The notes: generated by a model from the sequence alone, not told the origin. Shown: positions 20,904 through 32,607, counted from the first letter of the stretch. The stretch: DNA of 64,000 nt from Candidatus Cloacimonadales bacterium (GCA_963662655.2 CAXXTU010000002.1:2880001-2944000); one strand, 5' to 3'. Numbers and translations are program-made.

Positions 20904-23048
20904 CTATTTCAAGAGAAGCATCTTGCGCGTAAGCGCCTGATTCTCCGTTTGAAGCTTGTAGAAATATACGCCACCGGAAACCGTCTCGCCCTGCTCATTT
21001 TTACCGTTCCAGGTAACGGTGTTGGCGCCGGAAATCTGGCGACTGTTCAAGAGTGTTTTCACCTTCTGTCCCCGAACGTTGTAGATGCTGAGATTCACGT
21101 GACCGTCCTTCGCAAGCGAGTAGGAGATCGTCGTTTCGGGATTGAAGGGGTTCGGGTAATTCTGTCCCAAGTCGTTCGCGAAGGCCGGGCTTTCGTCCGT
21201 ACCGTCGACTCCCTCATAGTTGAATGTGATATCCAGAGACATGAAGGAAAGCTCCCCGCCGTCGTTGGTTCCGTTTCCGGCAACGTACGATCCATGTGAA
21301 TGGTCGTCGAAGAATCCCAAGCGAAGAAGCCCGTGCTTGTTACCCTGATTGTCGGTATAGAGGTATTCAATCTTGTCCGCCGGATAGATGTAACATGGAT
21401 TCAGGCCGACCAGCTCGGGAACGTAATTTCCGTCGTCTGTCTGATTGTTCGCATGCATCCGGATGGGGTCCGCCCAGGTTTCACCGCTGTCCATGGATAT
21501 CGCGATGCATATCTCGGGTTTGTCCATCCAGCTATCGTAACCGGAGACACCGTCATGAGCAAGTTTGGAATAGAGCGCATCCTGCCATACAACAGCCAGC
21601 CAGCCTTCGTCATCGTTCTGGGATATCTTCCAGTTGTTCTCATCCCATGCGTCCTCCGAATCCCAGTAATAAAAAGGCCAGCCAAGTTCCATCGTTACAT
21701 TACCCTCGTCGTCATACTCGTCTACAATACCGTTTTCGTCTAAATCCCAAGGAATCATAGGAGTGTTGTCTGAAGGATGCGCTCCCTTTGGTGAAAGGTC
21801 AGAGAAGAAGAATTCCCCTTCTTGAAGATCAAAACCGTAAACTTTGGCATACGTCAGGTTCAGGAACCATTGGAAAGAACCGTCGTCATTGTCTCGTCTC
21901 AGCGCCATGTTACCCGGAAAGAACAGCTTCGAATCGTTTACCAGTACCGAATTGAAATTCGTGCATTTCGTAAACGAGAAGTAGAGGTTGTCATAGGGTT
22001 CTCCGGATGTCTCTGCAAATACCCATTCTCCATTCTGGTTCTGTATGTTGTCTTGCGGGAACCTGTAATTCTGGATGAATTCAGTGAATTCTCCTTCTCC
22101 ATAATTGTCGTTTTTATATACGTAAATTTCCTGTGTCGAATTCGAGTAGCCGACGAAACCGACTGTGCCGCTATCTTCCGTCACGAAGAAGGTGTGGTTC
22201 CCCTGATAGAACTCGGGGTCGGGAACATCCCATGCGTCCATCTGAGCGACGGTGTTGTAGCGCCAGTTCAGGTTGGCTAGGTTGATGCTCTGGTCGTTGC
22301 TGTTGTAGTCGGCGTAAGCGATAATCGGATTGTGCGCCGCATACCCGCTTTCGTGCTCGGTATAGTTGTTTGCTACGACATACAGCCTCTTGTAAGGAGC
22401 TTCGAGAGGTGACGGGCCAATGTGTACGTACGGCCAGTTGTATTCGTTGTCCTGGCGCGGGAACACCTCGGCGCATGCCTCGATATCGTCATCAATAATC
22501 ACCTCGGGAACCACCAGAACGCCAGGGAATCCCAGCAGATGGAAGCTGTCGTAGGATATGAGGATTTCCTGCATTCCGTCGTTGTCGATATCGCAGTGCC
22601 ATACGAAGAATGGATCCGCAAGATCGCTGTCGATTGCGAGCCCGGGGTAACCTTCCCTGATGTCGGATTGCCCCAGGTAGTTGGTGGAATAGAATTCGTC
22701 GTTCTCGTCAAAATAAGTAGAATATACTCTACGCTCGGCGGAAGAGGTTTCCGTTGCGTGATAGACGAAATAGAATCCGCCAGCATCGTATCCGCCTGAG
22801 CTTGTCACCGGCTGCAAACAAAGAGGCTCGCCATTGTAACTTCCGGGCATATAATCGTAATAGGATGTCTGGAATCCAACCGGAAGCGTAACAAACTGCC
22901 ATTCGGGCGCGAAACGTCCTCTGGTCGGTGTTTTGATCTTGGTATAGTCGGCATTGACAGCATCGCCGGAGAATGTTGCCTGATGCGCCAGAAGTGTGGT
23001 AAACGCCATGATCAAGGACAGTGCGAATATAAATCTTCCTGCTTTCAT
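20904..23048 (-). CDS. Secreted protein with C-terminal FlgD-Ig / T9SS type A sorting domain
   Basis: Signal peptide; acidic beta-rich body; LGQNYPNPFNPETTISYSL...IYNVRGQKVKTL...GVYFYKL...RKMLLLK. Confidence 0.85.
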   Translation of the reverse strand: MKAGRFIFALSLIMAFTTLLAHQATFSGDAVNADYTKIKTPTRGRFAPEWQFVTLPVGFQTSYYDYMPGSYNGEPLCLQPVTSSGGYDAGGFYFVYHATETSSAERRVYSTYFDENDEFYSTNYLGQSDIREGYPGLAIDSDLADPFFVWHCDIDNDGMQEILISYDSFHLLGFPGVLVVPEVIIDDDIEACAEVFPRQDNEYNWPYVHIGPSPLEAPYKRLYVVANNYTEHESGYAAHNPIIAYADYNSNDQSINLANLNWRYNTVAQMDAWDVPDPEFYQGNHTFFVTEDSGTVGFVGYSNSTQEIYVYKNDNYGEGEFTEFIQNYRFPQDNIQNQNGEWVFAETSGEPYDNLYFSFTKCTNFNSVLVNDSKLFFPGNMALRRDNDDGSFQWFLNLTYAKVYGFDLQEGEFFFSDLSPKGAHPSDNTPMIPWDLDENGIVDEYDDEGNVTMELGWPFYYWDSEDAWDENNWKISQNDDEGWLAVVWQDALYSKLAHDGVSGYDSWMDKPEICIAISMDSGETWADPIRMHANNQTDDGNYVPELVGLNPCYIYPADKIEYLYTDNQGNKHGLLRLGFFDDHSHGSYVAGNGTNDGGELSFMSLDITFNYEGVDGTDESPAFANDLGQNYPNPFNPETTISYSLAKDGHVNLSIYNVRGQKVKTLLNSRQISGANTVTWNGKNEQGETVSGGVYFYKLQTENQALTRKMLLLK

Positions 23049-23062
23049 GTTTCCTCCCTTCC

Positions 23063-23794
23063 TTAGCGAACAGGTTTCTTACCTATGATGAAAAGTCGCG
23101 CGGACGACCCCAAGCCGTGCCTGATGAGTCTCTTCTTGATGCGCTCTTTCTCAATTCCCAGTTTTACGTAATCTGGATGGTTCTTGATTCGCTCGTGGTA
23201 AGGATCAAGGATGGCAATTGTTTTCTCGACTGCTTCGACGGGCGCTTTTTCTTTATAATCTATGAGATAGAATTCAATGTCTTCGAGACCAAGGCTGCCG
23301 GCAAAACGCTCGAGGCGTTCGCGACTGTAGGTGGCGTGATGAGGAATCCCAACGCGTCGATCGATCTGCGCACACCAATGGTGCATGAATACGTGATTCT
23401 TCTGCGCTTTAGACTGGTCGCCGTCGCGGAACATCTCCGAAATAAAGATCAGGCCCTCGGGTTTTGTCACGCGCAGCATTTCGTTAATGACTCTTTTCGG
23501 TCTGTCCATGTGATGCACGGAGTTGGATATTGCAACGATGTCGAATTCTCCATCGGCAAAATCCATCTTCTGGGCATCCATTTTAATCGCCTCGACCGGT
23601 GCGTCCTTGAACTGCTGGTTGCTAAACGCGATCGCTCTTTCTTCGCTGTCGATCCCGACAAACTTGTTGAATTTTCCCAGGCTCGGCATCATCATCGCGA
23701 TGAATTCTCCCCTGCCCGTCGCGACATCCAGAATTTTATCTGCGGAAATCCCCTTCAAGCGCTTTTCCAGTCTCTTCATATCGTTGGCTTTCAT
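23063..23794 (-). CDS. Class I SAM-dependent methyltransferase
   Basis: ILDVATGRG motif I, GID, FDIV, LRVTKPEG; GGAGGA RBS 7 nt before ATG 23794. Confidence 0.88.
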   Translation of the reverse strand: MKANDMKRLEKRLKGISADKILDVATGRGEFIAMMMPSLGKFNKFVGIDSEERAIAFSNQQFKDAPVEAIKMDAQKMDFADGEFDIVAISNSVHHMDRPKRVINEMLRVTKPEGLIFISEMFRDGDQSKAQKNHVFMHHWCAQIDRRVGIPHHATYSRERLERFAGSLGLEDIEFYLIDYKEKAPVEAVEKTIAILDPYHERIKNHPDYVKLGIEKERIKKRLIRHGLGSSARLFIIGKKPVR

Positions 23795-24084
23795 GATTGA
23801 TTCCTCCACACTTTTTCCTGCTGTTCGCTCTGTCCCATTATCGTACAGCCGTCAATCAAAATTCCGCTGGACAGATTTCGGGGCAATGAAACAACTTGGT
23901 GTACAGGTAATAAACATATTGAAAGTGCCATCTCGGGATCGTTATTGGTTGCTATCGGGTTGCTGAAGGTGATTCCGGAATTTTTAGACAAAAAAAAAGA
24001 AAAGGGGAGGAAATCGATAGACAACAAGCTTTGTGGTCCCAGATATGTCTTGTTTTTTTTGATCGTAATGCTTGCTGCCTTCAT
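23791..24084 (-). CDS. Putative sigma54-dependent small/leader ORF (97 aa, MKAASITIKKNKTYLGPQ...)
   Basis: GGAGG 5 nt upstream of ATG; about 40 nt downstream of a -24/-12 promoter; stop overlaps the methyltransferase start (ATGA). No recognisable family. Confidence 0.4.
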   Translation of the reverse strand: MKAASITIKKNKTYLGPQSLLSIDFLPFSFFLSKNSGITFSNPIATNNDPEMALSICLLPVHQVVSLPRNLSSGILIDGCTIMGQSEQQEKVWRNQS

Positions 24085-24121
24085 CGTTTCCTCCGTTTCT
24101 TGTTCCGGCAATTTATACGTT

Positions 24122-24137
24122 TGCACGGGCCGTGCCA
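24122..24137 (-). promoter_or_regulatory. Sigma54 (-24/-12) promoter
   Basis: TGGCACGGCCCGTGCA, GG-N10-GC spacing; next to a sigma54 activator gene. Confidence 0.72.
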
Positions 24138-24254
24138 CTGAATTCCATTCATTTTTATCTCGTTTTTTTGCAAGCTTTTGCGTATTGGCGTGTGCTTGTT
24201 TGTGTGGAATTGGCTCCGTAGGGCTTATGAGCAGCACGTAAAAATCCATGTCTT

Positions 24255-24270
24255 TTCCCATATATGGGAA
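24255..24270. promoter_or_regulatory. Palindrome TTCCCA-N4-TGGGAA (candidate enhancer/UAS), site 1
   Basis: TTCCCATATATGGGAA, about 118 bp upstream of the -24 element at 24137. Confidence 0.65.
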
Positions 24271-24447
24271 CGCGAAAAACTGAATGGTTGGCTTTTGATG
24301 AAAGTTGACGGGATGTAATTCTGCGCCCCACCCCCTTCTCGATGGTCGTTTTCGAGCGCAAGAGATGTGCTGGTTTCTTTTATAACAACGTTTTTATGCT
24401 TCTTGACTGCATCGCACAGCGCGGACCTTTCAATGTTGGCAATACTA

Positions 24448-24463
24448 TTCCCATATCTGGGAA
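24448..24463. promoter_or_regulatory. Palindrome TTCCCA-N4-TGGGAA (candidate enhancer/UAS), site 2
   Basis: TTCCCATATCTGGGAA. Confidence 0.6.
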
Positions 24464-24757
24464 TGCCATCGTCTCACGTTTGGTGAATATCCTGTAACGG
24501 AGCGCATTCTTGTGCTACGCATGCACGCAAGTCCTCCTAGATATCCATGCTTGAATTCTGCTTCAGTCCTGAAAGGGAGGGTGTCCAGGTTCGCGCATTA
24601 TGAGTGTATAAATGGTAAAATACTTGAAGTTATCAAGGCAGAGGTCTGTGCTGGGGGGCGTAAACAAGCTTCTTATCCAGGCATGGATTAAACGATTTCG
24701 ATTTGTCGGTATGAAGGTGATATTGTCATTCCATTCATTTTGCATACGGAGAGGTTG

Positions 24758-24773
24758 TTCCCAAATATGGGAA
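24758..24773. promoter_or_regulatory. Palindrome TTCCCA-N4-TGGGAA (candidate enhancer/UAS), site 3
   Basis: TTCCCAAATATGGGAA, 3 nt after the activator stop codon. Confidence 0.6.
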
Positions 24774-24776
24774 TCT

Positions 24777-27700
24777 TTAGATGTCCTTTTTGTTTGCGAG
24801 AAGCCGGTAGAAGGTCGACTTGGTCAGCCCCAGCTCTTTCTGCACTTCTTTAGCGGAGCCGAGGCATTCCTTGCGCCATTGCAGATATGCGGAAACCAGA
24901 TCTTCCACGGTAGCGATTCCTTCCGGATCTACCTCGAACGTGTCGGGAGCGCTATCGACGGGGAAGTTGCGCGGCATGAGAAGCATCTTGTAGACCTTGT
25001 TCTCCAGTTCGCGGATGTTTCCCGACCAAACGTCCTTCGTCCACAGGTTGATGGTTTCGTCGGGAATGCCGGTCACGACCAGATCCGGCTGGATCTCCAT
25101 GAAATTCCGGGTAAAATGTTTCACCAGAAGCGGAATGTCCTCGAGTCGCTCCCTCAGAGGCGGAACGTTCACCTGAAACGCCGAGATGCGGTAGTAGAGG
25201 TCCTCGCGAAAGAGGTTGTTCTTCACGTCCTGGTACAGATCGCGATTGGTGGCAAAGAGGAAGCGAGCGTTGGAGCGGTGCTCCTTCTTGGCTCCGATGG
25301 GATAGTAGGTCTTTTCCTGAAGCACACGCAGGAGCTTGGTCTGCATATCCATCGGCAGATCGCCGATCTCGTCCAGGAAGAGGATGCCGTCCTCCGCGAG
25401 CGCGATTTTCCCCAGAGAATCCTTGATCGCGCCGGAGAATGCACCTTTCTTATGACCGAAAATCTCGCTCTCGAAGAGGTCCTTCGGGATCGTGCTGACG
25501 TTGAGGGATATCAGCTTGCCCTTGTAGTCGCCTTCATAGTAGATCGCCTTGGCCACGACTTCCTTGCCGGTTCCCGTCTCCCCGGTAATTAAAACGGGGA
25601 AGGGAACGTTGGCCAGCGTAACGATCTGCTTATAAATCTCCTTCATGGCCAGGCTCTTGCCCACGATTCCATGAAAATTCTCCTGAACGTCGATATCGCG
25701 CAGGCGTTTTTGCATTTCCTTCTGGTTGAGGTGCTCCAGGAATACGCCCAGAATGGACGCCAGGTTTTCGATATTGCGCGTGTCCTCGTCGTTCAGGGAG
25801 TGATCGCGCTTCACCGAGTGCATGTAGATCGTTCCCAGAAGCTTTCCGCCCACCACCATCGGAACGCAGAGCGCGCGATAGATGCGGAGCTTCTGGATGC
25901 TGTCGTTGCGGAAGCGGGTGGACGAATCGTATTGCAGGGTATGGTAGGCGTCCTGCGTGTATTGCAGGAGAATGTTGTTGCTGTACTCGAGCGCGCGGTA
26001 GCTCTCCTCATCCTCGTGGATGATGTTCCGGAAGGGCACGAATCGACCGCTCTCCTCGTTGTAGATAAACGGGATCACGCTGTCGAAGCGGTAGGTCAAC
26101 TGGAAGAAGCTTCCCAGCTCCCGGAGGAATTCGTCCAGGTGGGAGATAACCGAGAACTTCTCGATGATATCGTTGATGTCGAGCCGGCATATCTGGCGGC
26201 GGCGGATCTCCCAATCCTGCAGGAGGGTCTGCGCGTCTGCGGAGCGAGACTTGAGGCCCATACCGTTGTAGATTTCCATGGCGTTCTGCATGAAATCGAT
26301 CGCCAGTTCGGGGTTTCCCATCCTTTCCAGGGCGAGGCCGGTCCAGTAGTAAGATTCCGCTCTCTCGTAACCGCTTTTCGATTCGATCTGCGTCGATATT
26401 CGTATCAACTCATGATACCGCTCCTCGAAAAAGAGGTCGATGATCTTCTGATAGGGCTTGGTTGCCACGAATCGCTCGCGGTTCCAGCCGAACCTTGCCG
26501 AGTAGCGCTTGCGGACATCTTCCGGCGCAAAACGGTAAATGAGGTAGATCGTGTTGTCGTCGTCGCGCTGGAAGTAGGAGGAGAGTTCTCTCGCGTTCAG
26601 GTCAATGAGCTTCTCCAGCCAGGGCTCGAAGGTGAACTCGTGGTCGTAGAAACTACAGATAAGGTAAACCTGTATCATGTAGGCCGTCGCGTACCCGTGT
26701 GACTGACGGATGCGCGAGATGATGCGCTCACGGCAGACATCGTAGTTCTCGCGTAGCATATCGTGATACACCTGCACGGAGGTGAAGTGGGTCTGCATGA
26801 CCATGGGAAGGTATTGTATGGATATCTTATCGTAGAAATTCAGGATCAGTTCGATATCCCTTACGCTTCGCTGCGCGGTGTAATACAGATAATAGAAAAG
26901 CAAGCGCCCGATCTGGTATTCAGAGCCGATCAGAAGCGACAGAACGAGCAGGTAGTCCAAAAATTCGTCCGCCAGACGAAGCCGGGGTTTGGCTTTGCCG
27001 AGTGTGTTGACGAACTCCTCGGGATCGGTGTTGGTCGCGATCAGGTTGGAGAGCTTGACGAAAACCTCGCGATCGAAGCTTTCCGGCGAAACGTAGCACA
27101 GGATGTCGATGTAGTGATACAGCATGACCTGCGTTTGGGGGTGAAGCTTCTCTCGTCGGCAGAATTCGTTGATTCCCTTCAGGTCCTTCTTCTGATAAAG
27201 CGAACGTATCGTCTCGATCTGATCCAGCACCGCCGTGATCTCGGGTGACATGTTCCGCTTCAATTCGGGCGTGATTTCAAGGTCGTCGTGCGTGATGAGC
27301 TCGGTGAGGACGTTGATGTTGTAGATGTATATGTTCATCTTGCCGATGATATTGGGCGTCAGTTCGTTCTTCGCGATGAAAAAACGGAGCAGTCGCGCGG
27401 CAAGCGTGTAGTTACGGGTCAGGAGATACCTGTGCAGGACAAGGAAGTCGTCGACGTGCATCTGTGCGAGCACGTCGAGCTGCGCGCTGTCGGCATAGCG
27501 CAGCTTTCCGAGCAGGTCGGCGCCGAGGGTGACGTATTGATCGAATCTCCATTCTTCCAGCGACACGCGAAGCTTTTTCGTGGTCTCCACGATCGCTTCT
27601 TCGGACGATGTGGGAGCCTGTTCCATGTGAGGCAGGATTATCTTTCCGTCATGCCAGGTGATGCCGGATTCTTGTATGATCTGCTGAAGGGGTACGTCGT

Positions 27701-28568
27701 GGTTGGCGTGAACGTGGAAGTTTTCGATATCTTCCGCCCGTTTGAAGGGGAGCTTCAGGCAGTATTTACGGTACAGCTCGAACGTATCCTTGTAGCTGAA
27801 CTGGTCCGTGTAGAACAGGTCCGATATCCGCTGATGGAATTCGAGATAATTGCTGTAGGAATCCTCGTACGGCAGGATGAGCACTTGATCGTGCTGCGAG
27901 AATCTGCCGATCCACTCGTCGAGGTCCTGAATGCGCGACCAGGGATCAACGGCCAGGAACTTGTGGGTCAGGCGGAAAATGGGCGACGTCTGAGGCAGGT
28001 GCAGTCCCTGATCCTGCTCGACCTTCTCTTTCACCTCGTCCGGGCTGGAGTATAGCGACGCGAAAATCAGGGCGATCGTATAGAGGTTGGACGCCCAGGA
28101 CATCCGTCCCTTGATTTGTTCAGGAGCAGCCCACTGCGGAGTTATCCGGCTTTCGTGCGGCGTGAGATCGATAATGCCGATTTTGATCTGCTCGCCCTCG
28201 CGCCGGATGCGAATATGCTCCGGCTTCATATCGCCGATGAAGGTTTTGTGATATTTCAGGTAGCGCACGAAGTGAAAGAGCTTCTCCCACAGGATGGGGA
28301 TGTCGTCGGGGTAGCGCTCCATATAGATGTTGATGGGCAATCCCTCGAAATATTCGTACTCGAAGCGCGCGCTTTTTTCGTCGAACCTGTACTTTGTCAG
28401 CGGGACAAAGTAGGGGTGTCGGCGCTGCTGAAAGAAATCTACCTCTGCCTTCAACTGCGAGCTGACAAGCACTCCGGGATTCGTATAGTACTTGACGATG
28501 CGCTTGCCGCTCGATGTCTTTTTCAGGTATATCTCAACCGTGTCTTTCTTTTTCAGGTAGTATTTCAT
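24777..28568 (-). CDS. Sigma54-dependent enhancer-binding protein with N-terminal degenerate Ser/Thr kinase domain, helical/TPR region, GAF, AAA+ and HTH
   Basis: IVK, GDMKPEH, WAAPEQ (kinase); ALCVPM...LLGTIYM (GAF); GETGTGKE, ESEIFGHKKGAFSGA, LFLDEIGD, ATNRDL, FREDLYYR, WSGNIRELEN (AAA+); LGLTKSTFYRLL (HTH). Start taken at ATG 28568. Confidence 0.9.
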   Translation of the reverse strand: MKYYLKKKDTVEIYLKKTSSGKRIVKYYTNPGVLVSSQLKAEVDFFQQRRHPYFVPLTKYRFDEKSARFEYEYFEGLPINIYMERYPDDIPILWEKLFHFVRYLKYHKTFIGDMKPEHIRIRREGEQIKIGIIDLTPHESRITPQWAAPEQIKGRMSWASNLYTIALIFASLYSSPDEVKEKVEQDQGLHLPQTSPIFRLTHKFLAVDPWSRIQDLDEWIGRFSQHDQVLILPYEDSYSNYLEFHQRISDLFYTDQFSYKDTFELYRKYCLKLPFKRAEDIENFHVHANHDVPLQQIIQESGITWHDGKIILPHMEQAPTSSEEAIVETTKKLRVSLEEWRFDQYVTLGADLLGKLRYADSAQLDVLAQMHVDDFLVLHRYLLTRNYTLAARLLRFFIAKNELTPNIIGKMNIYIYNINVLTELITHDDLEITPELKRNMSPEITAVLDQIETIRSLYQKKDLKGINEFCRREKLHPQTQVMLYHYIDILCYVSPESFDREVFVKLSNLIATNTDPEEFVNTLGKAKPRLRLADEFLDYLLVLSLLIGSEYQIGRLLFYYLYYTAQRSVRDIELILNFYDKISIQYLPMVMQTHFTSVQVYHDMLRENYDVCRERIISRIRQSHGYATAYMIQVYLICSFYDHEFTFEPWLEKLIDLNARELSSYFQRDDDNTIYLIYRFAPEDVRKRYSARFGWNRERFVATKPYQKIIDLFFEERYHELIRISTQIESKSGYERAESYYWTGLALERMGNPELAIDFMQNAMEIYNGMGLKSRSADAQTLLQDWEIRRRQICRLDINDIIEKFSVISHLDEFLRELGSFFQLTYRFDSVIPFIYNEESGRFVPFRNIIHEDEESYRALEYSNNILLQYTQDAYHTLQYDSSTRFRNDSIQKLRIYRALCVPMVVGGKLLGTIYMHSVKRDHSLNDEDTRNIENLASILGVFLEHLNQKEMQKRLRDIDVQENFHGIVGKSLAMKEIYKQIVTLANVPFPVLITGETGTGKEVVAKAIYYEGDYKGKLISLNVSTIPKDLFESEIFGHKKGAFSGAIKDSLGKIALAEDGILFLDEIGDLPMDMQTKLLRVLQEKTYYPIGAKKEHRSNARFLFATNRDLYQDVKNNLFREDLYYRISAFQVNVPPLRERLEDIPLLVKHFTRNFMEIQPDLVVTGIPDETINLWTKDVWSGNIRELENKVYKMLLMPRNFPVDSAPDTFEVDPEGIATVEDLVSAYLQWRKECLGSAKEVQKELGLTKSTFYRLLANKKDI

Positions 28569-28692
28569 CGCATTCCTGCCCAGTTTGAAACAGTATCTTA
28601 GGATTCCGATGTTTCGTGTCAAAGGTTTTATTAAGGGAGCATAGCGAACGATGTGAAAGAACATTCTGATCGGAACTCGATGGGATGGCTTT

Positions 28693-28708
28693 TGGCACCG
28701 AACGTGCA
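28693..28708 (+). promoter_or_regulatory. Sigma54 (-24/-12) promoter, divergent from the activator gene
   Basis: TGGCACCGAACGTGCA, GG-N10-GC; 13/16 identical to the promoter at 24137-24122. Confidence 0.7.
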
Positions 28709-28755
28709 TATTAAAAAACGTGTATCCAGCCTCAACCATAGGGGGGATGGGGCGG

Positions 28756-28809
28756 ATGCCTGGATTAACGGTAAAGTCTGTGCGTCAATATGAGATAATG
28801 CCTATATAA
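28756..28809 (+). CDS. Putative leader peptide MPGLTVKSVRQYEIMPI (20 aa if it starts at ATG 28747)
   Basis: G-rich RBS-like AGGGGGG upstream; lies between the sigma54 promoter and a terminator hairpin. Confidence 0.3.
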   Translation: MPGLTVKSVRQYEIMPI

Positions 28810-28851
28810 CTTTGATATGAACGCATGCGATTCATAATTCCTGCTCGATTC

Positions 28852-28893
28852 GCTGTCGGATTGACGCATACCACAATCCGGCAGCCTTTTTTT
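28852..28893 (+). terminator. Intrinsic terminator upstream of the ABC permease gene
   Basis: GCTGTCGGATTG/CAATCCGGCAGC stem plus T7. Confidence 0.75.
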
Positions 28894-29059
28894 ATATTCT
28901 GCACCTCATCCATAAAATGTTCATAAACGGACACTTGGAATTCGCAATCGAACGAAACAAGCTGAATGGACGATCCTGCACTGCCGAATCATTTGGAATC
29001 ACTTGTGCATAGGAGAAGCCGGAGAGAAGAGGAAATAAAAAAAAAGAGGCTACATCAAT

Positions 29060-31456
29060 ATGCTGGGGAAAATATTAATTGTAGGTTTCAGAAATCTTCT
29101 AAAAAACAAAACGTTTTCTCTGATCAATGTTGTGGGGCTCGCGGTGGGACTTGCGTCCTGCGTGTTTCTGATACTGATAGCCAATTTCCATTTTCATTTC
29201 GATGACTACCATTCGAAGATTGATCGAATCTATCGACTGAACGACCGCATTGTCGGGCATGGAAGCATCGACCACAACACTGCACTCACACCGCCCGAGT
29301 GGTCTCCCGCGATGATGGAAGAGTACCCGGAGATCGAGAATTACGTACGTTTCGAGGACGGAAACATCAATATTCGCATCGGAGACGAGCTGAAGAATTT
29401 CTATGTCGTCTTCGCCGATACGACCATCTTCGATGTGTTCGATTTCCCGCTCATTGCCGGGGACCCCAAAACCGCCTTGAGAGATCCTTACTCGATTGTA
29501 TTGGGAAAAGATTATGCGGAGCAGATGTTCCCGGGCGAGAATCCCATCGGCAAAACGCTCTTTGCAACGGTGGAAAACCGCAACTACCGTGTTACGGGAT
29601 TGATGGACGAGATACCGTACAACACAACGATGTTCCTTCCCGCAATCGCATCATACAGCACGCTGGGCGAGGTCAACTGGCAGTACTACGGCTCCTGGTA
29701 CTATCACGCCGTAACGAATTTCCTTCTTCTGAAGCCGAACACGGATTATAAAAAGCTACAGGAAAAATTCCCCGATTTCATCGACGAGCACATGGACACG
29801 GACAAGGTGGGGCGCTACAAGCCTTTCCTGCAACCGATGAAGAATTACCATCTGAGAAAACGTTTTCTTCGCAGCGAGCAGGGCAATTTCATCGATCAGA
29901 ATATTGTCTTGCTGATCGGCGGAATCGGTCTGCTGGTGATCGTCCTTGCATCGATCAATTATATCAATTTATCCAGCGCCATATCATTAAAACGATCCCG
30001 CGAGGTCGGAATGCGTAAGATTTTCGGTTCCGTCAGGCAGCAGATCGTCGCGCAGTTCATGGCAGAATCGCTGATTTTATCGATTCCTTCCGGCGTGATC
30101 GGCTCGGTATTGATCGAGCTCATTATCAAGTATCTGAATTCCGCTTACTTCGATAACATATTTCCCACGCCATACTACAGCATCTCTTTCATATTCATGG
30201 TGACGATGATCATATCGGTTATCGTGGGGCTATTGGCAGGAATCTATCCGTCCTTTGTCCTTTCTTCCTACAGGCCGTCCGCCGCGTTGAAGGAGGGTTC
30301 CACCAAGGGTCTGAAGGGGATGTGGTTTCGCAAGCTCTTCATTGTGGTTCAGTTCTTCCTGGCGATCACCCTGCTGGTCATCAACATCAATTTCTACCGG
30401 CAGATCAAGTATATGGAGACCAAGGATTATGGGTTCAGTCCGGACAGCCTGTTTATGATTTCGAATCCGCTCGATTCGCGGTACGAACGGGCAGAGACAT
30501 TCCGGCAGAGGCTGCTCGACGTTCAGGGTGTGAAGGAAGTGGGTTTTTCCGCCAATACGCCCGGACTGGGCTACTGGTGGGGTCGTTTCCTTCCGGAGGG
30601 AGCAGACCAGCATGACGGCAGGATGTACAAGGTGCTTTTCACGGATGACAGAACCATGCAGATCATGGATTTCAAGCTGCTTGAGGGGCGCTTCTTCTCG
30701 ACGGAATTCGCGACCGACAGTATCAACACCGCGATCATCAATGAGGCGGCGCTTCGTGAGTTTGGCTGGGATACGGCTGTCGGCAAGAAGGTCAACTATA
30801 TGTATCAGGAATTCGGCGATTCCACTCGCACGATCATCGGTGTGGTGAAGGACTTTCATTCGGACAATTTAACCGAACCGATCACCCCCATGATCATTAT
30901 GTTCAACCCCAATTTCATGAACATCGCGAACATCAAATACGATATATCGCGGCGCAAGGAAATCAAAGACGAGATCGTGGAGATATGGAAGGAGTATCAG
31001 CCGGATTCTCCGATCAATTACGGGACGTTTTTCGACGACATCCTTGCCCGTCGTATTCAGAGCATCAAGCCGTTCGTTCAGATGATCTCCATGTTTACGG
31101 GATTATCGATCTTCATTGCGTGCATGGGATTATTCGGCCTGGTATCGCTTGTGGCGCAGCAGAAGAGGAAGGAGATGGGTATCCGCAAGGTGTTCGGCGC
31201 GTCCGGAGGGAGGATTGCCTACGAGGTGTCGTCGTATCTGTTACGATACGTGGTGGTGGCGAATGTATTGGCAATACCCTTTTCGGTATATGTGCTGTCT
31301 CAGGTGACAAAGAACATTGCGTATGTGGTTGAATATGCCTTATGGCCTTATGTTGTGGCTGCGTTGGCTACGCTGGTCATTGCGTTTATTTCGGTGGGCT
31401 GGCACGCGGTGAAGACGGCGGCATCGAACCCCGTGGAATCGTTACGATACGAATAG
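29060..31456 (+). CDS. MacB/FtsX-like ABC transporter permease (duplicated periplasmic core plus FtsX domains)
   Basis: RNLLKNKTFSLINVVGLAVG, INYINLS..ISLKRSREVGMRK, IACMGLFGL, RKEMGIRKVFGA, NPVESLRYE. Confidence 0.92.
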   Translation: MLGKILIVGFRNLLKNKTFSLINVVGLAVGLASCVFLILIANFHFHFDDYHSKIDRIYRLNDRIVGHGSIDHNTALTPPEWSPAMMEEYPEIENYVRFEDGNINIRIGDELKNFYVVFADTTIFDVFDFPLIAGDPKTALRDPYSIVLGKDYAEQMFPGENPIGKTLFATVENRNYRVTGLMDEIPYNTTMFLPAIASYSTLGEVNWQYYGSWYYHAVTNFLLLKPNTDYKKLQEKFPDFIDEHMDTDKVGRYKPFLQPMKNYHLRKRFLRSEQGNFIDQNIVLLIGGIGLLVIVLASINYINLSSAISLKRSREVGMRKIFGSVRQQIVAQFMAESLILSIPSGVIGSVLIELIIKYLNSAYFDNIFPTPYYSISFIFMVTMIISVIVGLLAGIYPSFVLSSYRPSAALKEGSTKGLKGMWFRKLFIVVQFFLAITLLVININFYRQIKYMETKDYGFSPDSLFMISNPLDSRYERAETFRQRLLDVQGVKEVGFSANTPGLGYWWGRFLPEGADQHDGRMYKVLFTDDRTMQIMDFKLLEGRFFSTEFATDSINTAIINEAALREFGWDTAVGKKVNYMYQEFGDSTRTIIGVVKDFHSDNLTEPITPMIIMFNPNFMNIANIKYDISRRKEIKDEIVEIWKEYQPDSPINYGTFFDDILARRIQSIKPFVQMISMFTGLSIFIACMGLFGLVSLVAQQKRKEMGIRKVFGASGGRIAYEVSSYLLRYVVVANVLAIPFSVYVLSQVTKNIAYVVEYALWPYVVAALATLVIAFISVGWHAVKTAASNPVESLRYE

Positions 31457-31507
31457 CGCCTGCTTGGAAACAGACGCTATTCACAAAAAATACAAGGAAG
31501 CGCAGAC

Positions 31508-32197
31508 TTATTGATTCATTATGTTCTGCGCTTCTTCTTTATCGTCTCCATAGGTGAAAACGCTCAGGATGTTGTGGGAGTTCTCCGGGTCCACAACTTT
31601 GGGATACAGGATTCTCAGCGCAGATATCTGATCGTCCGAGTACGTGAGAACGCTTAATACGCGAGCGGATTGATCGACCGTGAAATGATTGCGTTTCGCG
31701 GCTGTTCGGATGACATTGAGCTGGTCATCGGCGAAGCTTTCGTTTCGGATTTGATTCAGCAGGCGGTCGAAGTCCACTCCGTTCATCGCCTGATTTCCCG
31801 ATTCTGCTTCCACGCTGCCTGCATCGATGTCGGTGCCGGTCTCGGTGACGCTCACATTCATGGAGAAGCTAGCCGACGATTCATTCGAGGATGTGGCGGA
31901 CGTTGAAACGCTGATGCTCTGGTCCGATGGGATGTTGGCAAGCATTGCGAATACTTCATCCATGAGTTTTTTAGCCTTCATGCTTTCAGTTCTGCCCAAT
32001 TTTCCGCTATACAGCGTCTCGAGAGCTTCCAGCTTGTAGCCGATATTCTCGACGATCTGGCCGGTTGTCACCGAATTGCCTTGGGTGTTTCCAGACATCT
32101 CAACTGTTATCTGACCATTGGGAGTCGTGAACACAACATCGGCTGCAAACAAAGGTAATGCTAGCAATACGAATAGAAATCCAATATACCTTTTCAT
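31508..32197 (-). CDS. Exported DUF4476-domain protein
   Basis: GGAGG RBS, signal peptide; MNGVDFDRLL..IRNESFADDQ...FTVDQ...LYPKVVDPEN. Confidence 0.8.
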   Translation of the reverse strand: MKRYIGFLFVLLALPLFAADVVFTTPNGQITVEMSGNTQGNSVTTGQIVENIGYKLEALETLYSGKLGRTESMKAKKLMDEVFAMLANIPSDQSISVSTSATSSNESSASFSMNVSVTETGTDIDAGSVEAESGNQAMNGVDFDRLLNQIRNESFADDQLNVIRTAAKRNHFTVDQSARVLSVLTYSDDQISALRILYPKVVDPENSHNILSVFTYGDDKEEAQNIMNQ

Positions 32198-32286
32198 TCG
32201 AATCCTCCAAAATTTTTGCAAGAAACGGCTTTAATGATTACGGCGTCAATAAAAAATAAAAGGAACTCGTTGAAGTAATAAACAGC

Positions 32287-32321
32287 AAAAAAAAGAAGCA
32301 GATCGAGATTGTCTGCTTCTT
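32287..32321 (-). terminator. Intrinsic terminator
   Basis: AAGAAGCAGA/TCTGCTTCTT stem with an A-run on the plus strand, just downstream of the gene at 32347-32607. Confidence 0.65.
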
Positions 32322-32346
32322 CTTGTATTCGTGATTATAACAGGAT

Positions 32347-32607
32347 CTACTCGTAGTTGAAATCCATTCCCTTCACCTGGATGCCGTCGATGACGTTCAA
32401 TTCCTCTTCGAGTGAATCCCAAATCGCTTTGTCGCCCACAAGCTCGAGGATTAACAGGCCGGTACGACTGCAGTAGCTTTCGCTTGTTTCATGCAGTCCG
32501 AGACGAGTTTTGATATTACAACCATATTTGGTGAGGATTTCCTGTACTTTCGTTGCTTCGGTCAGGCGATTTGTAACTAAAACACCCATAATGCGAATTT
32601 TTTCCAT
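32347..32607 (-). CDS. Small ACT-like protein (TM1266 / iron-only hydrogenase regulator-like family)
   Basis: AAGGAG RBS; IMGVLV.NR...A.KVQEILTKYGC.IKTRLGLHE...GLLILEL. Confidence 0.7.
   Translation of the reverse strand: MEKIRIMGVLVTNRLTEATKVQEILTKYGCNIKTRLGLHETSESYCSRTGLLILELVGDKAIWDSLEEELNVIDGIQVKGMDFNYE

Follow-up and report, generated by a model that had tools for sequence, protein, structure and literature searches.

Two leader RNAs beside a sigma54 activator as candidate base-pairing regulators of a secreted-protein family in a Candidatus Cloacimonadales bacterium

Introduction

The 64,000-nt stretch of DNA analysed here (the window; GCA_963662655.2 CAXXTU010000002.1:2880001-2944000) comes from a Candidatus Cloacimonadales bacterium and contains the gene of a bacterial enhancer-binding protein (bEBP), an activator of sigma54-dependent transcription, with a −24/−12 promoter to its left and another to its right, each of which precedes a structured leader RNA. 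Both leaders carry a conserved stretch that is complementary to a conserved site near the translation start of a distant gene, and the two genes, named here paralogs A and B, belong to one five-member family of secreted proteins, of which another member, paralog O, is encoded at the locus itself. In the preferred reading, to which the sequence comparisons lend a probability of about 0.58, the activator would open the left promoter through a set of palindromes, and both leaders would act as base-pairing small RNAs (sRNAs), the left one activating A and the right one repressing B. An earlier note on this DNA had proposed a self-contained module in which the activator switches on small RNAs or peptides; the comparisons support small RNAs as the products, and the module reaches well beyond the locus, with predicted targets 0.6 Mb (A) and 1.05 Mb (B) away.

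Positions without a prefix are those of the window. Its genome, G000 (3.8 Mb, 98.95% complete), was compared with three relatives of the same genus, G001, G002 and G003, which are also titled Candidatus Cloacimonadales, and 'all four genomes' means these together with G000. G006 belongs to another genus, G004 and G007 likewise lie outside this genus, and G010 belongs to another family. Within the genus the activators of the relatives are 79-80% identical to that of G000, and synonymous sites are near saturation, with a proportion of synonymous differences (pS) of 0.46-0.82 in the neighbouring genes.

The right leader RNA and the start of paralog B

The right RNA is predicted to be about 175 nt long (28720..28893, plus strand; 180-200 nt in the relatives) and is composed of variable 5' hairpins, an invariant core and a terminator, whose 12-bp hairpin (28852-28885, plus), followed by a U7 tract in G000, is kept in all four genomes with one two-sided change. 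A 20-nt seed (28831..28850, plus) is complementary at 19 of 20 positions to the Shine-Dalgarno (SD) sequence and AUG of paralog B (G000:C2:1854667, minus), and a second seed in the terminator loop (28866..28872, plus) is complementary, at matching spacing, to an invariant 7-mer in the 5' untranslated region (UTR) of the same gene. Among 2917 start regions of G000, whose open reading frames (ORFs) were chosen by a filter for length and SD, paralog B ranks first for the right RNA by ungapped score and fifth by energy. The target 20-mer is identical in all four genomes (control, 0), in orthologues that are 73-79% identical, and it was not found in any of four other family genomes, which lack the RNA. 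Cofolding of the right RNA with UTR B gains −21 to −30 kcal/mol, and one of 500 whole-RNA shuffles reaches its score against the five paralogs. It is quite likely that the right RNA would cover the SD and AUG of paralog B and thereby lower its translation. A further family member in G002 carries both right seeds. The 694-aa secreted-type gene at G000:C2:412090 (plus), second in rank for the right seed, is a possible additional target, and its apparent orthologue in G001 (G001:C1:3863593, minus) has both seeds as well.

The pairing with UTR B runs in register for about 43 nt and extends over the terminator loop and the top of its 5' arm; moreover, the strand upstream of the terminator that is complementary to its loop is invariant. 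These features would also suit regulation in the reverse direction, with the leaders serving as cis switches that sense the paralog mRNAs: mRNA B would occupy the loop and upper stem of the right terminator and cause read-through into the downstream macB-like gene, and mRNA A at the left loop would alter termination there. The binding of an RNA to an attenuator loop has a precedent in Rli51, as outlined in the excerpted report (PMC11394854). Such a scheme is improbable as the sole explanation, since the target sites are an SD with its AUG and an anti-SD hairpin, where pairing would alter translation of the target, and since several hundred extra bases lie between terminator and macB in G003; it can nonetheless coexist with base-pairing regulation of A and B.

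The left leader RNA and the anti-SD hairpin of paralog A

The left RNA is predicted to span about 120 nt (23990..24110, minus) with a 23-bp stem, a 40-nt loop (24069-24030) and a U-tract. It folds with a z-score of −3.46, has a mean column identity of 92%, and its stem pairs hold in 95.7% of alignment cells versus 34-50% in slid controls. A 15-nt seed in the loop (24035..24049, minus) is complementary to positions −39..−25 of paralog A (G000:C2:3497577, minus), and flanking bases from the A-rich part of the loop match a second, upstream site on the anti-SD strand of UTR A (−14 to −20 kcal/mol). In the same screen of start regions, paralog A is ranked first by duplex energy and second by ungapped score for the left loop. 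The site is paired at all 15 positions in the four orthologous UTRs, and within it the genomes differ only by C/U facing G and by A/G facing U. When UTR A is folded alone, its SD is predicted to be unpaired with a probability of 0.00-0.09; with the loop present this rises to 0.58, 0.19, 0.91 and 0.48 in the four genomes, and with 60 shuffled loops the mean opening stays at or below 0.08. Five of 500 whole-RNA shuffles reach the left score against the five paralogs, and the target motif was not found in G006 and G007, which lack the RNA. The left loop is thus likely, judging from these predictions, to pair with bases inside and next to paralog A's anti-SD hairpin, thereby freeing the SD of that mRNA.

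Both RNAs therefore show what is expected of trans-acting sRNAs, namely a conserved seed, predicted to be accessible, whose complementary site in an unlinked mRNA is likewise conserved. In-genome BLAST with the leaders matched the start of paralog B and the second left site, and the 40 nt before the ATG contain 35 invariant columns in B and 27 in A, versus 22, 19 and 9 in three other genes.

The complementarity might instead be accidental, or left over from paralog UTRs that were duplicated in inverted form, beside leaders that are purely cis-acting attenuators or ligand switches. The in-register match of the right RNA to UTR B is what an inverted copy would give, and both leaders end in a terminator-like manner. 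This alternative is nevertheless quite improbable: RNA and target sides are both conserved while synonymous sites are saturated, changes in the target preserve pairing, two unrelated RNAs match two members of one family, and neither leader is covered by an Rfam match, be it to Qrr, GlmY/Z, CsrB or riboswitch models (three weak matches up to E=5 fall elsewhere in 22500-32500).

Two other pairings were rejected or set aside. The left and right RNAs pair with each other at −15.1 kcal/mol, which is not better than shuffles. A second left match of 21 nt (G000:C2:2355383-2355403, L142), upstream of G000:C2:2355240, was not counted, as its duplex energy falls from −35.0 kcal/mol in G000 and −27.7 in G003 to −21.6 in G001 and −17.8 in G002, and it lies 5' of the sigma70-like −35 element of the gene. 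It is situated 158 nt before the gene for a 1067-aa secreted protein that precedes paralog C; a conserved GG-N10-GC element is seen about 50 nt upstream of the match, and the divergent gene is presumably relA/spoT-like.

The left promoter and the core regulon

Both promoter 16-mers lie where the earlier note had placed them (24137-24122, minus, and 28693-28708, plus) and are identical at 13 of 16 positions, and both are kept in the three relatives. The motif TGGCAC-N5-GTGC occurs three times in the genome, twice at this locus. Counts of a relaxed −24/−12 motif show no enrichment (C2 has 27, three shuffles 30, 29 and 10), and the evidence for the promoters is therefore carried by conservation and position. 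The GTGC at −12, previously taken as a signature shared by the two sites, does not hold as such, because G002 and G003 have ATGC there at the right site. The genome encodes RpoN, as the proposal demands, and of its 20 sigma54-activator matches 19 are full-length. Placement of a −24/−12 site after a bEBP gene is common in G000, with 5 of the 18 other bEBPs having one 146-326 bp past the stop. As a separate observation, bEBPs of 700-790 aa at G000:C2:2994736, 2546049 and 623454 and at C1:35902 are followed by such a site within 200 bp, and at the three C2 loci an ORF of 87-113 aa follows the site, as in a repeated module.

Between the activator stop and the left promoter (24122..24137, minus) lie the only three exact copies of TTCCCA-N4-TGGGAA in G000 (24758..24773, 24448..24463 and 24255..24270), the last about 120 bp upstream of the −24 element. 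All three are kept in G001-G003, and they are likely binding sites of the activator. Palindromes some 100-150 bp before the −24/−12 element, as expected upstream of a bEBP-dependent promoter, are present at the left promoter in all four genomes and in G006. In the latter, the activator (45% identity) is unlinked on contig C11, and the methyltransferase and the best match to paralog O (46%) adjoin each other on C19, preceded by a −24/−12 site with palindromes at −441, −320 and −147 that score 22.0, 22.6 and 16.5; the one at −147 is the counterpart of palindrome 3. A pattern search of the whole G006 genome returned two matches, both at this operon (control, 0). In G010, the activator gene and two members of the secreted family face away from each other, and the DNA separating them holds two related palindromes and a GG-N10-GT site; in G004 and G007 no such promoter was found at the methyltransferase.

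Since the G006 operon has palindromes and promoter but no leader, and its activator is unlinked, the core regulon is likely to consist of the activator acting on the methyltransferase and the secreted protein, with the leader a likely genus-level addition. With high confidence, the activator would bind the palindromes, open the left promoter and thereby raise expression of the methyltransferase and paralog O. The claim that the activator governs its adjacent promoters is consequently well founded on the left.

The left leader as an attenuator

A leader ORF of 97 codons (93-97 in the relatives; 23791..24084, minus) begins within the left RNA, runs through its hairpin and ends with a stop that overlaps the methyltransferase ATG (ATGA). 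The ribosome-binding site (RBS) and AUG of this ORF form the 5' stem arm and are hidden by the 23-bp stem. In all four genomes the ORF is open with the same overlap, and hairpin and U-tract are kept; when the 3' part is shuffled it stays open in only 13-42 of 1000 trials each. Openness and overlap together suggest selection for translation and coupling, and the ORF, coupled to the methyltransferase, likely forms an attenuator. We moderately favour a mechanism in which a ribosome bound at the leader's RBS occludes the 5' stem arm and so permits read-through and translation coupled into the methyltransferase, and hold to a similar degree that, with no ribosome there, the stem would close and the 120-nt RNA be released.

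The first 33 codons have a pS of 0-0.17 versus 0.46-0.82 in the neighbouring genes, and 12 of 13 fourfold sites in the leader ORF are invariant, compared with 6/57, 85/377 and 38/260 in three genes; the low pS indicates that this stretch is conserved as RNA. This bears on the suggestion that the locus makes a leader peptide that is methylated, exported by the MacB-like permease and sensed by the TPR region of the activator. The ORF is indeed open throughout the genus, and from codon 34 to the end nonsynonymous differences are rarer than synonymous ones (pN < pS) among G001-G003. Yet the conserved part of the ORF is conserved as nucleotides, identity between the G000 peptide and the others is just 46-56%, a profile finds it in 4 of 232 phylum genomes against methyltransferase homologues in 152 of them, the G006 operon lacks the leader ORF, and no right-leader ORF with an RBS is conserved across the genus genomes. 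A peptide system is accordingly very improbable. The parts of the leaders described in the earlier note fare differently: RBS, ATG, long stem and U-tract on the left and the hairpin with U7 on the right are borne out, and the short ORF on the right is not.

Protein sponges of the CsrB type are just as hard to credit. CsrA is encoded in G000 and the left RNA has GGA motifs, but these are few, those of SD type are buried in the stem, and conserved complementary sites in the paralog mRNAs would be left unexplained.

The leaders are narrowly distributed. When 232 phylum genomes were searched at the DNA level, matches outside the genus were all weak (about E=5e-4; three left, two right), covariance models found each leader in 4 of 61 genomes and none beyond the genus, and the left 20-mer occurs in three stretches among 185,579 genomes, all from relatives already known. 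Of two metagenome scans, one returned no match and the other two matches lacking the surrounding leader. In two DNA runs from one sample, a weak observation, contigs break exactly at the leader RNAs (24080-24109 and 28811-28855), and depth is raised at the right break, as if a co-sampled relative shared only those two stretches.

The right promoter and its permease

The right −24/−12 promoter (28693..28708, plus) is kept in all four genomes and moves with the gene for a MacB-like duplicated permease (29060..31456, plus), one of 10 such paralogs. In G001-G003, a gene of 548-719 aa stands between the activator and this promoter, so that an activator directly flanked by promoters on both sides is peculiar to G000 and not the general arrangement that had been supposed. 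The lack of a palindrome at the right promoter, together with this intervening gene, leaves a single regulon, and with it the part of the earlier claim that concerns control on the right, unproven.

That the activator also drives the right promoter is accordingly a tentative and rather doubtful step. We lean slightly towards two regulons, in which the pairing is real and the right promoter answers to another of the 19 bEBPs and is merely nearby, a view that replaces this one step and no other. Apart from the missing palindrome and the gene found in all three relatives, it draws on the other macB paralogs: 4 of the 10 have a −24/−12 site within 400 bp upstream, and the three besides this one have no adjoining bEBP. 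What speaks for joint control is that promoter and activator are linked within 0.1-2.7 kb in all four genomes and that both RNAs match the same five-member family.

Several observations concern the surrounding intergenic DNA. In G000, the segment 28595-28640 lacks the intervening gene and a fourth palindrome of the relatives; the intervening gene of G001 has the same TTGACACGA-type −35 element at either end, which could mark the point of a deletion. In G002 and G003, each of the two intergenic regions contains an insertion of a short interspersed repeat of the GTAGGGGCAGG type (L034:2600-3000; L033:9900-10050).

The activator and the operon products

The activator (24777..28568, minus; 1263 aa) is made up of a kinase fold (residues ~1-230), a helical/TPR region, a GAF domain, an AAA+ domain with GAFSGA, and a C-terminal end that we take to be a Fis-like helix-turn-helix, which agrees with the domains previously assigned. 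The AAA+ domain matches Sigma54_activat (PF00158) at E=1.3e-58 with invariant Walker A and B motifs and R-fingers; Pfam also detects GAF, and its TPR matches are weak. The N-terminus is modelled as a protein kinase fold (predicted local distance difference test, pLDDT, 83), with kinase and pseudokinase domains as top Foldseek matches (E ~1e-6), and its profile retrieves nine full-length cluster representatives at E<=1e-30. This region lacks what we take to be the Gly-rich loop, and the residue presumed to be the catalytic-loop Asn is replaced by His. As K26, E42, D113, K115, D134 and APE are invariant in nine of nine orthologues, the inactivity implied by the earlier term pseudokinase is not established. 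A GDxKP motif is found by regular expression in 6 of 11 members of a wider activator set.

A sigma70-like promoter, TTGACA-16-TAAGAT (28595..28622, minus), precedes the activator gene. In the relatives, a fourth palindrome stands immediately upstream of its −35 element, likely an indication of autoregulation. A second, near-identical activator copy is present at a contig end of G003 (G003:C4:305-4090; L035), with a palindrome on each side and other neighbours. In G007 and G004 (L037, L039), an activator orthologue of 32% identity is divergent from a presumably FlhF-like gene, and a variant of the palindrome lies about 130 bp upstream. A literature search found no paper that combines all five architecture terms of a kinase-fold/TPR/GAF bEBP.

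The first product of the left operon is a class I S-adenosylmethionine-dependent methyltransferase of 243 aa (23063..23794, minus), for which no curated NCBIfam cut-off is passed among the matches listed (25 of 34); outside the genus, 4 of 26 inspected homologues have a −24/−12 site within 130 bp upstream. The second, paralog O (20904..23048, minus; 714 aa), is a predicted beta-propeller with a T9SS-type (type IX secretion) C-terminal domain. These two and the permease are as originally described. The model of paralog O (pLDDT 88) has an all-beta domain, and its top Foldseek matches are ulvan lyase and sialidase-type propellers (7-13% identity, query TM <=0.44); because identity is so low, glycan binding or cleavage can be taken as no more than a lead. 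An Atlas search for the secreted protein gave unnamed clusters only. At G000:C2:3160090-3160310, a short TTTCGCGGAGCGAAA-type repeat occurs in several copies 3' of a secreted-protein gene.

Evidence that tempers the proposal

A number of results weigh against regulation of A and B by the two leaders as proposed. Hfq (PF17209) and ProQ were not found in G000 at its estimated completeness. The right seed contains an anti-SD sequence, which makes chance matches likelier, and the shuffle figures for both RNAs are optimistic because the paralog family was picked after the first match. The leader comparisons rest on four genomes of one genus, which is why the left stem shows no significant covariation (173 of 500 shuffles, four rows). 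On the left, the best fold with the G001 loop pairs at the upstream site and opens the SD to no more than 0.19, and cofolding of the whole left RNA with UTR A, by a method without loop-loop pairs, does not reproduce the loop pairing; activation of A therefore remains a prediction. With respect to termination, a 40-nt loop is atypical, and a terminator scanner limited to loops of 3-8 nt called neither hairpin (loops of 10 and 40 nt).

The control of the promoters is subject to similar doubts. In none of the four genomes does a palindrome with a positive score lie 300 bp or less from the right promoter. The GAFTGA-loop position of the activator reads GAFSGA in G000 and GSFSGA in close orthologues, and mutants in GAFTGA are mostly unable to activate, according to the passage available from a review (PMC7175178). 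In the wider family, the loop is GAFTGA in 3 of 11 members and GSFTGA in 1 of 11.

Implications

If all steps hold, the set of secreted propellers would shift from B to O and A. In its fullest form, one kinase-fold activator would set a complete paralog switch without Hfq, turning O on directly, A on through the attenuator-released RNA and B off, with mRNA B in turn unzipping the right terminator and setting read-through into the permease; this combination is unlikely as a whole. A literature search on Cloacimonadota and small RNA found no such RNA described, and the locus gives that phylum two candidate sRNAs, each with a named and conserved target and a predicted direction of effect. It suggests that leader RNAs can coordinate an expanded secreted family, one member up and one down, with long pairing replacing Hfq. 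In addition, it points to where an uncharacterised family of kinase-fold/TPR/GAF bEBPs likely binds and which operon it likely controls.

Comparison with known systems

Some features of the proposed system are familiar from other bacteria. The Qrr RNAs require Hfq, and the stand-alone GlmZ/GlmY RNAs, also Hfq-dependent, are known for opening an anti-SD hairpin and for sigma54 control. With LuxO/SypG-Qrr1 of Vibrio, the present system would share bEBP-dependent sigma54 transcription of a regulatory RNA; in that case two bEBPs can serve one promoter, as the excerpt of that work describes (PMC10162802). Unlike Qrr1, the RNAs considered here have no Rfam match to Qrr and are leaders of coding genes, the input is a kinase-fold/TPR/GAF protein, and the predicted targets are paralogous secreted proteins. 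GlmZ/GlmY-glmS offers the activation of translation by an sRNA (abridged accounts in PMC2267818 and PMC3045617), although its target is metabolic, whereas leader RNAs and secreted-protein targets are involved here. CJnc230/CJnc170 of Campylobacter provides an RpoN-dependent sRNA and a pair of sRNAs with opposite effects; CJnc230, in contrast, arises by processing of RNA from downstream of flgE, and its targets are flagellar, as given in the available portion of PMC11187230.

The closest parallels to the left RNA come from attenuators. The rnTrpL leader of Sinorhizobium has an ORF and a terminator, and the RNA released from it acts on genes of related function in trans, as sketched in the excerpt of PMC6614838. 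In the present leader, by comparison, no amino-acid control codons are evident, the promoter is of sigma54 type, and the 93-97-codon ORF, with its own RBS as the 5' arm, extends across the terminator into an overlap with the following gene. Rli51 of Listeria (PMC11394854) and RhlS of Pseudomonas (PMC6786874) are 5'UTR-derived RNAs with cis and trans roles, Rli51 being 121 nt long and using a single-stranded loop for RNA pairing; they are unrelated in sequence to the leaders studied here, and their abstracts mention neither bEBP control nor targets paralogous to the downstream product. By analogy, the system would act like a sigma54-dependent sRNA of the Qrr1 kind joined to an attenuator-derived trans RNA as in rnTrpL and Rli51, and it belongs to none of those families.

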